Shown here: positions 41,872 through 44,101 of the stretch, piece after piece
Layout of the letters: each line of letters starts with the position of its first letter
How positions within the stretch are numbered: position 1 is the stretch's first letter
Virus record (IMG/VR): IMGVR_UViG_3300008012_000024
Location: 1-64,000 of that record
Length of the DNA: 64,000 nt
Strand: one strand, 5' to 3'
Source: an uncultured virus (IMG/VR IMGVR_UViG_3300008012_000024)
Lineage: Duplodnaviria; Heunggongvirae; Uroviricota; Caudoviricetes
Notes under the pieces: generated by a model
The model's input: only the letters and a program-made list of their open reading frames with translations
What the model was told of the DNA's origin: nothing
The model's database searches: none
Program-made: the position numbers and the translations under genes

Positions 41872-42510
41872 TTATACCCATTCAAGTGCTTCAGCAACTG
41901 TTGGAAACTGTTCAATAAAAATCTTCTTACATCCATTTGCTACATCCATGTGCTCTTTCTGAGTGCCGTTTGCAGACCTCAGAGTTATATAATGGATCCA
42001 TGACCTGCATGATCCTGACATGTAGATTTTTGTTGGTACGCAGAGTGGAAGCACATTTCTTGCACATTCCTTTGCGACACCACGTTCAAGCATTTGCTTG
42101 TACAAAGCCATGGAAGAATCAAAGAGAGTTTGCATCTGAAGTTGCAGAGTCTGAACATCAAAAGGATCCAAATCATCAATAGAATTTTGACGATTCTTCG
42201 TGTCTTGCCTACGAAGTTCTGGTAGTGGAATCTTATCAAAACCTAACAGAGATGAATCAGCGTACCGCTGGGAAAACTCTTGATATGTGAACGAACGGTG
42301 ACGCAAAATTTGAGCTGCGATTGCCCTGGTAGTTTCAATCTCCAGAGTCATGAAACTTTGCTCAAATACACTCCAGTGATTATGTTTAATACAATATTTC
42401 AAAAGTCCTGCATATTTTTCGTTTTCTTGATTTGCAGGATTAGAAACTCTGGCAACATATGCCATAGTTTCTTCTGCATCTGGAGTTACACTAATCAGTT
42501 TTACGGTCAT
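41872..42510 (-). CDS. thyX: flavin-dependent thymidylate synthase
   Basis: HWSVFE, QILRHRSFTYQEFSQRY, ARNVLP. Confidence 0.97.
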   Translation of the reverse strand: MTVKLISVTPDAEETMAYVARVSNPANQENEKYAGLLKYCIKHNHWSVFEQSFMTLEIETTRAIAAQILRHRSFTYQEFSQRYADSSLLGFDKIPLPELRRQDTKNRQNSIDDLDPFDVQTLQLQMQTLFDSSMALYKQMLERGVAKECARNVLPLCVPTKIYMSGSCRSWIHYITLRSANGTQKEHMDVANGCKKIFIEQFPTVAEALEWV

Positions 42511-43203: not shown

Positions 43204-43232
43204 AAAAAAAGAGAGGTTTCTTAACCTCTCTT
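43204..43232 (-). terminator. intrinsic terminator of the riboswitch/DUF4278 transcript
   Basis: AGAGAGGTT-AAGA-AACCTCTCT followed by T-tract. Confidence 0.85.
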
Positions 43233-43319
43233 ATGTAAAAGTGTTAACTTTCCGTAAACTAAACCAAGAAATGCAATACTAAAAATAGAACCTAATGATA
43301 CTACTTATAATGCTTGCAC
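43221..43319 (-). pseudogene. possible small membrane-protein gene interrupted by TAA at codon 5
   Basis: GAGG RBS then GTG CAA GCA TTA TAA, followed in frame by VVSLGSIFSIAFLGLVYGKLTLLHKRG*. Confidence 0.4.
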
Positions 43320-43326
43320 AATTGCC

Positions 43327-43491
43327 TCACTTATTATAAGTGTGACCGCGATAGCAGAAAGTACCATGTACTTCATCAGCACCTTGCTTACACTCATACT
43401 TGACACCACGATAAGTGGTCATTGCGATTTGAGCGTCGTGCAGTGCTGCTGCTTTTTTAATTTGCTTTTTAATGAGATTGAGGGTGTTCAT
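43327..43491 (-). CDS. DUF4278-like protein, 54 aa (not in ORF track)
   Basis: MNTLNLIKKQIKKAAALHDAQIAMTTYRGVKYECKQGADEVHGTFCYRGHTYNK; two YRG.xY motifs; AGGAG RBS. Confidence 0.85.
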   Translation of the reverse strand: MNTLNLIKKQIKKAAALHDAQIAMTTYRGVKYECKQGADEVHGTFCYRGHTYNK

Positions 43492-43556
43492 TGTAGGTCT
43501 CCTAAAAGAATGGGTGAAAATTAACCTTCTCAGCTTTCGCTGGATCCGTTTTTTCC

Positions 43557-43744
43557 CGTTCCTTCAGTCGTTTGCGTCCCAGTAGAATTCACATTCAGGT
43601 ACAGATTCCTTTACGGTCTCTACCAATTCTACCACCACTTGTGGAGGTAGTTCTGATCTATTTTTTGTGATCCTGAACAATAATGCATCAGCATCAGTAC
43701 AAGTTATACTTGAATATAAAAGTAATTCTAGCATGGGATGAACG
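43557..43744 (-). ncRNA. glutamine riboswitch-like aptamer 2 with ORF-filled P2 loop
   Basis: CGUUC-A-UCCCA...UGGGA-CGCAAACGACUGAAG-GAACG. Confidence 0.75.
43564..43734 (-). CDS. 56-aa two-Cys protein nested in aptamer 2 (not in ORF track)
   Basis: MLELLLYSSITCTDADALLFRITKNRSELPPQVVVELVETVKESVPECEFYWDAND; GGAG 10 nt upstream; resembles 43770..43970. Confidence 0.75.
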   Translation of the reverse strand: MLELLLYSSITCTDADALLFRITKNRSELPPQVVVELVETVKESVPECEFYWDAND

Positions 43745-43747
43745 CTC

Positions 43748-43980
43748 CGTTCCGCGACTTACTTGCGTCCTATGTATACACTCCGTTACATTCACCTGGT
43801 ACTTTTGATTTGAGGTAAGCGATTAGACTCAACTTCGACCGAAGGTCAAGGTTTGGATCTAATCGGATTTCCGTAGATCGTTGTAACCACCTTTCACAAG
43901 ACATGTGCCAATCGTAAGGATTAGCGTCATTATGATGGGCAAGGGTGAATGCCAGCAGTAGTGCTAACATTGGATGAACG
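43748..43980 (-). ncRNA. glutamine riboswitch-like aptamer 1 with ORF-filled P2 loop
   Basis: CGUUC-A-UCCaAUGU...ACAUaGGA-CGCAAGUAAGUCGCG-GAACG. Confidence 0.75.
43770..43970 (-). CDS. 66-aa two-Cys protein with hydrophobic N-terminus nested in aptamer 1
   Basis: ORF track; C...I..D.NL....K..L...LK.KVP.EC. Confidence 0.75.
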   Translation of the reverse strand: MLALLLAFTLAHHNDANPYDWHMSCERWLQRSTEIRLDPNLDLRSKLSLIAYLKSKVPGECNGVYT

Positions 43981-43989
43981 TACTAGAGT

Positions 43990-44018
43990 ATTATAACTCC
44001 TATGTACTATGTAGTCAA
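43990..44018 (-). promoter_or_regulatory. sigma70-type promoter TTGACT-N17-TATAAT
   Basis: agtcaa 44013-44018, attata 43990-43995; predicted TSS near 43983, just before aptamer 1. Confidence 0.85.
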
Positions 44019-44025
44019 GTAGTTA

Positions 44026-44041
44026 TGTAACTTATGATACA
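44026..44041. promoter_or_regulatory. NtcA box TGTA-N8-TACA
   Basis: tGTAacttatgaTACa, core 8 nt upstream of the -35 element. Confidence 0.7.
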
Positions 44042-44101
44042 ATTTTAAAAAACCTTACAGGTTAAAAATTTTGGCGAATTTTTTTCGGGGTTATTGGGAA
44101 A

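Follow-up and report, generated by a model that had tools for sequence, protein, structure and literature searches.

Glutamine-type riboswitch cores whose P2 helices enclose small protein genes, upstream of a DUF4278-like phage gene

Introduction

Riboswitch aptamers are usually viewed as compact non-coding domains that stand before the genes they control. The two classes of glutamine riboswitch are the closest described relatives of the locus treated here, which lies in a 64,000-nucleotide (nt) stretch of DNA from an uncultured virus of the Caudoviricetes (positions 1 to 64,000 of the 74-kb IMG/VR record IMGVR_UViG_3300008012_000024; the whole of this stretch is referred to as the window). 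The minus strand carries two glutamine-aptamer cores back to back at 43980-43557. A near-consensus promoter precedes them and a DUF4278-like gene of 54 amino acids (aa) with a terminator follows, and the P2 helix of each core is closed around a complete small open reading frame (ORF). The sensor and the two protein genes share nucleotides, since parts of one gene (its start codon, stop codon and last five codons) belong to the aptamer, so that folding, ligand sensing and translation are traded off on one molecule.

The glutamine-I class (RF01739), exemplified by the gifB/IF17 leader of Synechocystis, resembles the present locus in the P1 pairing of CGUUC with GAACG, in the unpaired A and the base of P2 that come after the first P1 strand, and in the GAAGGAACG tail, which is found here in slot 2, the place of the second unit. 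The association with a DUF4278 gene is also common to both, as is the competition, with ON logic, between the tail and an inhibitory duplex formed at the ribosome-binding site. In the gifB leader, glutamine turns IF17 translation on by melting the inhibitory duplex (Klahn 2018, PMC6212724), and tandem glutamine-I copies are on record in an earlier survey (Weinberg 2010, PMC2864571). However, P2 of glutamine-I is a hairpin of about 14 nt, whereas here the helix is closed across 170-200 nt of gene. The present units further differ from glutamine-I in having start and stop codons in the helix, in the reading of ORF2 through the junction, in lacking an Rfam match and in being carried by a phage.

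The glutamine-II class (Downstream-peptide, RF01704), found in marine picocyanobacteria, shares with this locus the CGCA after the first hairpin, a short DUF4278-like ORF downstream and possibly the GGAACGG in the loop of a 3' hairpin, which in glutamine-II forms a pseudoknot with CGUUC, and the slot-1 forms with a short P2 that occur in related loci align with it over their full length. In contrast to this class, their scores are below threshold (21.8-28.6 vs 33 bits), the possible 3' hairpin has only 3 base pairs (bp) and overlaps the next aptamer, and in the window the first hairpin is replaced by a gene-bearing helix.

Whole genes inside a functional RNA are familiar from phage group I introns, which tolerate homing-endonuclease ORFs in their peripheral loops; there the RNA is a ribozyme and the ORF is equipped with signals of its own. 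The likeness lies in an RNA fold that accepts a complete protein gene in one stem-loop. Unlike in the introns, the start and stop codons are here the strands of the helix themselves, and the RNA is a predicted metabolite sensor on the same mRNA. An interplay between ligand sensing and the translation of a small leader ORF is also reported for the B12 and Mbox leaders of M. tuberculosis, riboswitches that act through small upstream ORFs (PMC11260477, PMC12810186); there, however, the ORF belongs to the expression platform 3' of a compact aptamer, while here it lies inside the aptamer. A survey of riboswitch distribution lists only two glutamine aptamers in cyanophage genomes and states that phages rarely use riboswitches (McCown 2017, PMC5473149). 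A gene placed within a glutamine aptamer was not found described in the literature searched, which included PMC6212724, PMC2864571, PMC5473149, PMC9964418, PMC9004378 and PMC7760959; the additional files of Weinberg 2010, which may be relevant, lie outside this scope.

Results and Discussion

Organization of the locus

The locus forms a compact unit of ~780 nt (44018-43209, minus strand) that consists of the promoter, unit 1, a GAG linker, unit 2, a 65-nt spacer, the 54-aa gene and the terminator. The order of parts is the same in both units, namely CGUUC, an A, the P2 5' arm that bears the AUG, the ORF, the P2 3' arm, CGCA with the rest of the junction, and GAACG. The elements of the two units are the following, with the four P1 strands denoted a to d.

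43980-43748, minus: unit 1, whole
43976..43980, minus: aptamer 1 P1 5' strand CGUUC (strand a), invariant in 53/53 distinct slot-1 long units
43975, minus: aptamer 1 unpaired A
43967..43974, minus: aptamer 1 P2 5' arm UCCAAUGU, including the ORF1 AUG (43970-43968); from sequence, fold and covariation
43770..43970, minus: nested ORF1, 66 aa, small protein with two cysteines, phrog_6471; from ORF, PHROG match, substitution rates and AlphaFold
43768..43775, minus: aptamer 1 P2 3' arm ACAUAGGA, including the ORF1 stop UAG (43772-43770); from sequence and covariation
43748..43767, minus: aptamer 1 junction CGCAAGUAAGUCGCG (43767-43753) and P1 3' strand GAACG (strand b, 43752-43748), non-coding and nearly invariant
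43747-43745, minus: GAG linker between the units
43744-43557, minus: unit 2, whole
43740..43744, minus: aptamer 2 P1 5' strand CGUUC (strand c), followed by the unpaired A at 43739
43724..43738, minus: aptamer 2 P2 5' arm, with basal UCCCA (43738-43734), the ORF2 AUG (43734-43732) and the extension UAGAAUU (43730-43724)
43564..43734, minus: nested ORF2, 56 aa, small protein with two cysteines, phrog_504, ending in WDAND and stop; from ORF, PHROG match and AlphaFold
43577..43589, minus: aptamer 2 P2 3' arm, with AAUUCUA (43589-43583), a bulged C and basal UGGGA (43581-43577)
43557..43576, minus: aptamer 2 junction CGCAAACGACUGAAG (43576-43562; ORF2 stop UGA 43566-43564) and GAACG (strand d, 43561-43557)

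An earlier note on this DNA, made from the letters alone, had described the pattern CGUUC-A-(P2)-CGCAA...G-GAACG as occurring twice, back to back on the minus strand, and every pairing that it named is present. P2 of aptamer 1 joins the start-codon and stop-codon regions of the 66-aa ORF, as it had proposed; this can be read in the sequence and is reproduced in the predicted fold. The 56-aa ORF is likewise enclosed by P2 of aptamer 2 when the sequence is read, and its last codons, WDAND and the stop, are the core of aptamer 2 itself. ORF2, which begins in UCCCAUG, continues across UGGGA into the junction, where its UGA stop lies 3 nt before the P1 3' strand. The observation of two gene-enclosing glutamine-type cores is confirmed.

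The exact word CGTTCAYCC occurs twice in the 64 kb, both times at this locus; with one mismatch it is found 19 times, compared to 11.1 expected, which is unremarkable. It is through conservation and covariation in related loci that the finding is beyond chance.

Identity of the aptamer cores

Two sets of related loci were used, one of 80 loci fetched via the 54-aa protein (set 1) and one of 120 loci fetched via a linker word (set 2) that is estimated to be present in ~1400 IMG/VR stretches. At the equivalent place upstream of the same gene, three layouts of short and long P2 domains are encountered in slots 1 and 2, the last two lines below giving the other arrangements.

Short slot 1 and long slot 2: 43/80 in set 1, 70/120 in set 2
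Long and long (the type of the window): 22/80 in set 1, 36/120 in set 2
Short and short: 2/80 in set 1, 1/120 in set 2
Long slot 2 with no adjacent slot 1: 7/80 in set 1, 0/120 in set 2
Incomplete: 6/80 in set 1, 13/120 in set 2

The junction and P1 letters are identical for P2 hairpins of 10-28 nt and P2 domains of 170-230 nt, and the junction and GAACG stretch of aptamer 1 also recurs identically after short P2 hairpins elsewhere. The natural short-P2 relatives served as a stand-in for loop-deleted constructs in the covariance-model test. The short slot-2 form (loci L035 and L037) gives a full-length match to RF01739 with 36.8 bits, above the threshold of 35, and the window units do not reach the gathering thresholds of RF01739 (35 bits) or RF01704 (33 bits). 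The proposal that these are two glutamine-type aptamers with a whole gene in P2 is hence upheld by related loci that hold the same cores with a short P2 matching RF01739/RF01704, and so is the prediction that standard covariance models would miss the gene-bearing form, there being no Rfam match in the window while the short-P2 relatives do match.

Both strands of P1, CGUUC and GAACG, are present in both units and invariant in the relatives. The base of P2, composed of U-A, C-G and C-G pairs, directly follows the unpaired A in both units, and the helix is closed over the gene with no hairpin loop. For the glutamine-I 3' junction, which ends in GAAGGAACG, unit 2 has CUGAAGGAACG; unit 1 has GUCGCGGAACG without GAAGG, closer to RF01704, and looks glutamine-II-like. 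By sequence and covariation, both sensors are assigned as true glutamine-riboswitch aptamer cores. It is highly probable that they are real split aptamers around real genes, and likely that they still bind glutamine.

The nested genes

A total of 385 units was obtained from the 200 loci and the window, of which 279 are distinct (155 slot-2 long, 53 slot-1 long, 62 slot-1 short, 3 slot-2 short and 6 unassigned). Of the 208 distinct long units, 206 contain an ORF of 40 aa or more whose ATG lies in the P2 5' arm, and in 188 of these 206 the ATG is at one fixed offset in the helix. ORF1 matches phrog_6471 (E = 8.1e-31) and ORF2 matches phrog_504 (E = 2.1e-21), both over the full length. Clustering of the nested proteins gives one cluster for slot 1 (49), one for slot 2 (149) and four small ones. 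The median ratio of nonsynonymous to synonymous substitution rates (dN/dS) is 0.19 for the ORF1 family (779 of 1176 pairs usable) and 0.39 for the ORF2 family (7759 of 11026). Third codon positions are the most variable in the nested ORFs, the lengths of slot-2 units change in steps of three, and each protein family has two invariant cysteines. In the AlphaFold models, the helical cores have a predicted local distance difference test score (pLDDT) above 90, the means being 81.1 for ORF1 and 80.7 for ORF2. The intact frames, the PHROG families and the dN/dS values identify the nested ORFs, at the level of sequence, as conserved genes, in agreement with the earlier view of them.

The last five codons of ORF2 are invariant in nucleotides, wobble positions included, and the interior of the ORF is variable; the mean column identity over 33 slot-2 units is 75%. 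The wobble invariance of these final codons points to a constraint on the aptamer core at the RNA level.

No Pfam family was found for the nested proteins, which appear in the protein Atlas only in viral or unlabelled hypothetical clusters, and a Foldseek comparison of both models with the PDB gave no match better than E = 3.5. A shared ancestry of the two proteins was not supported by BLASTP, where the match is insignificant (E = 0.093). When their profiles are compared, the two families align weakly with both cysteines at equal spacing (E = 8e-4, probability 24%), and a common origin is possible on this basis. The minor nested-ORF families (loci L100, L107, L108 and L117) have no BLAST kinship to the main two; their products have a hydrophobic, signal-peptide-like N-terminus and two cysteines. 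Such families imply that several gene types have been hosted by P2.

Long-range P2 pairing

When the 53 slot-1 long units are aligned, 90.4% of the cells are paired over the 13 base pairs that make up P1 and the base of P2, as compared to 85.9% after shuffling, and the covariation score is 0.164 vs 0.094; neither observed value is reached in any of 500 shuffles. When the partner columns were slid as a control, 25-54% of the cells were paired. The pair 13/272 of P2 is C-G in 30 units and U-A in 23, with none unpaired (n = 53), and the pair 14/271 is C-G in 15, U-A in 14, A-U in 2, G-C in 1 and unpaired in 21 (n = 53). On the 3' side, these covarying pairs are formed by the nested gene's stop codon. 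The stops used in the 3' arm are TAG (19 units), TGA (12) and TAA (9), and each is matched by untranslated bases before the AUG; no coding constraint accounts for the match. In slot 2, position 4 of P2 is C-G in 108 units, U-A in 39, U-G in 7 and unpaired in 1 (n = 155), and position 1 has switched from U-A to C-G in one unit. The observed P2 pairing is reached by 0 of 2000 permutations in either slot.

The complementarity continues beyond the base of the helix, where own arms are more stable than arms swapped between loci, with energies of -15.2 vs -11.0 kcal/mol in slot 1 and -7.55 vs -6.41 kcal/mol in slot 2; own-arm complementarity beats all 40 permutations. The lowest-energy fold has P2 closed in 43/53 slot-1 and 121/155 slot-2 native units, compared to 8/53 and 44/155 when the interior is shuffled. 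The two window units, when folded alone, reproduce the closure of P2 (and, for unit 1, also P1), with z scores of -3.3 and -4.1 relative to shuffles. The long-range P2 helix is under selection.

Downstream gene, expression platform and contact between the units

The elements that complete the operon-like unit are given below.

43990..44018, minus: sigma-70-type promoter TTGACT-17-TATAAT, 11/12 consensus matches, the -10 end 9 nt before the CGUUC of aptamer 1
43743..43756, minus: possible glutamine-II-like 3' hairpin CGC/GCG with GGAACGGA in the loop, 3 bp only and weak
43502..43567, minus: expression platform, in which CUGAAGGAA.GGG (43567-43555) pairs with CCC.UUCUUUUAG (43514-43502) in the predicted fold
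43503-43499, minus: Shine-Dalgarno AGGAG of the 54-aa gene, its first two bases covered by the platform helix
43327..43491, minus: putatively regulated gene, 54 aa, DUF4278-like (IF17-like), phrog_545
43209..43232, minus: intrinsic-terminator-like hairpin of 10 bp followed by a T run, closing the operon

An equivalent promoter arrangement can be read in L035, L062 and the cultured phage Syn9. The -10 element ends 9 nt before CGUUC, and the mRNA should thus begin a few bases 5' of the aptamer. The 54-aa protein matches PF14105 with E = 3.3e-4 and 21.4 bits (threshold 25.3), and 35/35 relatives match the same family at E <= 0.01, all of them below the Pfam threshold, in keeping with the description of the gene as DUF4278-like.

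The tail of aptamer 2 pairs with the ribosome-binding-site region of the 54-aa gene in the lowest-energy fold of 45/45 distinct leader tails. The 5' strand of this anti-Shine-Dalgarno helix is the invariant aptamer core; two sequence solutions are found, both complementary to the invariant aptamer strand, and the inner part of the helix aligns with gaps. The loop of the platform helix can hold a GAAA-tetraloop hairpin (43546-43523, minus strand; GAUC CAGC GAAA GCUG ... GGUU), which is seen in the window and some relatives and is missing from most, with the compensated stems CAGC/GCUG, CUGC/GCAG and CUGCC/GGCAG.

The fold of the full leader of the window has a z score of -4.87. Among the ligand-free lowest-energy folds of 53 distinct full leaders, 44 have strands b and c joined in a local hairpin, 50 have strand a paired to AUGAAC, where the 54-aa gene begins, and 52 have strand d, with the junction, paired to the ribosome-binding site. 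GUUCAU (43974-43979) is the exact complement of AUGAAC at the start of the 54-aa gene (43486-43491), both on the minus strand; locus L036 has AUGAGC at this position, where the pairing would be kept via G-U. This 6-bp pairing could be a second lock on the gene, or a coincidence.

The two units may in addition be interlocked via the 3-bp CGC/GCG hairpin, which would share two bases with P1 of unit 2. In the RF01704 alignment of locus L043, GGAACGGA is placed in the loop of this hairpin and the 3' strand takes the first two bases of the next CGUUC. One pair of the hairpin has changed from C-G to A-U in L035 and L037, a single independent change, and L062 retains GAGCG though its next aptamer is 64 nt off. 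The P2 arms pair better within units than across them, with 17/17 vs 13/17 at position 3; at position 4, the counts are 17/17 within unit 2, 8/17 within unit 1 and 5/17 across.

Proposed mechanism and alternatives

The best explanation of these results is a phage operon of ~780 nt, switched by glutamine, in which the P2 helices are closed by the start-to-stop pairing of small genes, and we hold it with moderate confidence. The aptamer fold and the translation of the nested gene would be mutually exclusive, P2 being built from the AUG region as one strand and the stop region as the other; translation of ORF2 would additionally pass through the junction, ending 3 nt before the P1 3' strand. A ribosome could load before the 3' arm is transcribed, and the RNA would close afterwards. 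In the absence of glutamine, strand a is predicted to pair with the AUGAAC start, b and c to form the local hairpin, and d with the junction to pair with the ribosome-binding site. Glutamine would favor a:b and c:d, which would tighten both closed P2 domains and lower the translation of the nested genes, and it would make the IF17-like gene accessible at its ribosome-binding site and start codon, resulting in an ON switch as in gifB. Neither P1 can form unless the b:c hairpin opens, from which cooperative action of the two sensors is expected. This wiring is the probable one, as far as sequence and energy models can tell. A coupling in which ligand binding buries the AUGs and ribosomes unfold the aptamers had been put forward in the earlier note and is plausible. 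ON control of the last gene appears reasonably probable, and the glutamine-dependent repression of the nested genes is a more balanced matter, on which we lean slightly to the doubtful side.

A bolder and more tentative form of this mechanism, to which we give less than even weight, is a ribosome-gated sensor, where the aptamer would exist only when the mRNA of the translated gene is closed from start to stop. Ribosome traffic would then set when the RNA senses glutamine, and glutamine would feed back on the traffic. The two units would have their four P1 strands swap partners with the IF17-like gene, at its start codon and ribosome-binding site, and would constitute a cooperative, AND-like nitrogen switch widely carried by T4-like cyanophages. 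If this is true, phage riboswitches are greatly under-counted, because standard models cannot see split aptamers.

A number of results weigh against the glutamine-switched operon as described. Rfam cmscan gives no match in the window at the gathering score and none at E <= 10 on 801 nt, and RF01739 and RF01704 searched on the 74-kb record give nothing except a 9-nt RF01704 match of 4.7 bits (E = 9.93). The short slot-1 forms, although aligned over their full length, stay below both thresholds, with 23-27.5 bits for RF01739 and 21.8-28.6 bits for RF01704. The pairing of P2 is imperfect in slot 1, where position 4 is an A-A mismatch in unit 1 of the window, as in 19/53 units, and position 5 is unpaired in 9/53. 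Covariation had been proposed in the earlier note as a test of both helices; the P2 arms do covary in the relatives, while P1 never varies and for this reason has no support from covariation. The 7-bp extension of aptamer 2 claimed there is partly retained as well: its arms are present and own arms are more complementary than swapped ones, but there is no single register across relatives, and in an RNAalifold consensus of 33 slot-2 units neither a conserved P2 extension nor any covarying pair is seen. The same calculation favors GCGUUC paired with GGGACGC over P1, and P1 of slot 2 is part of the lowest-energy fold in only 31/155 units. In the full-leader folds, P1 is formed in 3/53 cases for unit 1 and in 0/53 for unit 2; such scarcity fits the switch, yet it shows that the energy rules alone have no preference for the aptamer fold.

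The closure of P2 is moreover predicted with or without P1, i.e., in both states. Glutamine may accordingly modulate the burial of the nested AUGs, perhaps slightly, rather than decide it, and the nested genes may be translated mainly before the 3' arms are transcribed, glutamine stabilizing the closed form. Ribosomes that finish ORF2 would also open the anti-Shine-Dalgarno helix at any glutamine level, blurring the switch.

We have also considered that the genes are passengers, i.e., that P2 merely tolerates insertions, as group I intron loops do with homing-endonuclease ORFs, the aptamers act for the downstream gene alone and the nested genes have a translation of their own, uncoupled from the sensors. 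Short and long forms with identical cores do coexist at both slots, at least six unrelated-looking ORF clusters occupy P2, and the closure of P2 without regard to P1 would suit such an arrangement. However, the AUG is kept at one fixed offset of the helix in 188/206 units with no separate ribosome-binding site in the loop, translation would end in the 3' arm or junction, where the stop codon is found, and the ORF ends and the helix co-evolve. A ribosome on the start or stop codon is also incompatible with P2, so that some coupling is physically unavoidable, and we regard this explanation as unlikely. The extreme case, in which the ORFs are not genes at all and the inserts are long structured P2 extensions that stay open by chance, can draw on the strong structure of the inserts (z scores of -3.3 and -4.1), but it is hardly credible for 206/208 intact frames with slot-2 lengths in steps of three, the most variable positions at the third codon base, dN/dS of 0.19 and 0.39, an invariant cysteine pair, PHROG families and confident AlphaFold cores.

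A different pairing of the same strands, b:c with a:d outside, would yield one interlocked sensor instead of two in tandem. The four strands are all invariant and covariation cannot choose between the schemes; the b:c hairpin is present in the ligand-free lowest-energy fold of 44/53 leaders, and the small CGC/GCG hairpin shares bases with unit 2. We nevertheless consider this permuted fold improbable, given that the P2 arms match better within units than across (17/17 vs 13/17 at position 3), that the same cores are kept in loci without an adjacent slot 1 or with aptamers 64 nt apart, and that a:d pairing is obtained in 0/53 folds. Very improbable is a decay of the aptamers, by which gene insertion would have ended ligand sensing and left the halves as a plain start-stop hairpin that limits translation or affects mRNA stability. 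The window has no covariance-model match, and the closure of P2 alone could throttle translation. Against such decay, the 53 slot-1 long units show no variation in the non-coding bases of the junction and P1, and the 33 aligned slot-2 units are invariant or nearly so there, including the wobble positions at the end of ORF2. The conserved stretches are identical to those of the Rfam-matching short forms, and the switch helix between the aptamer 2 tail and the ribosome-binding site is retained in 45/45 leaders.

The glutamine-switched operon with start-to-stop P2 helices is therefore retained as a gene-bearing variant of the glutamine riboswitch, for which the structural reading is supported and the regulation is plausible. 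It suggests that cyanophages read the glutamine pool of the host to time the expression of an IF17-like (glutamine-synthetase-inhibitor-like) protein and of two small proteins.

Distribution and neighborhood

By blastn, the locus has matches in 418 GenBank cyanophage records. The cultured model phage Syn9 carries the three genes under the names gp196, gp197 and gp198; the same promoter can be read there, as can the cores and the pairing of start with stop regions, which makes the layout directly testable. A pattern scan of 185,579 species genomes, made in the slot-2 length range, gave 4 matches, all on metagenome-assembled contigs. These contigs (L202-L205), binned as Synechococcus, Verrucomicrobiales, Euryarchaeota and an uncultured bacterium, show the nested layout and are most likely mis-binned cyanophage contigs.

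Contigs from 4/4 metatranscriptome runs cover 43228-44069, with little on the flanks, where gaps carry no meaning. This coverage speaks in favor of transcription but is evidence of presence in RNA libraries only, as transcript ends, strand and level are unreadable in contigs and DNA in the libraries is possible. In the RNA libraries, the summed contig depth peaks 5- to 10-fold at 43541-43597 and 43712-43768, the two conserved cores, and many contigs join the cores across differing ORF sequences. We attribute such behavior to many co-occurring phage variants that share the cores, of which the joined contigs and the depth peaks are the signature.

The 212-aa ORF located two genes downstream (41872-42510, minus strand) is presumably a flavin-dependent thymidylate synthase (ThyX)-like protein, and the intervening small ORFs, up to the operon, have matches to PHROGs with no assigned function (phrog_665). 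In the phages Sf-CH5 (H4) and Sf-FS3 (H27), the match to the locus is split in two, with an annotated homing or HNH endonuclease gene beneath, which suggests the insertion of a mobile gene in or beside the riboswitch operon.

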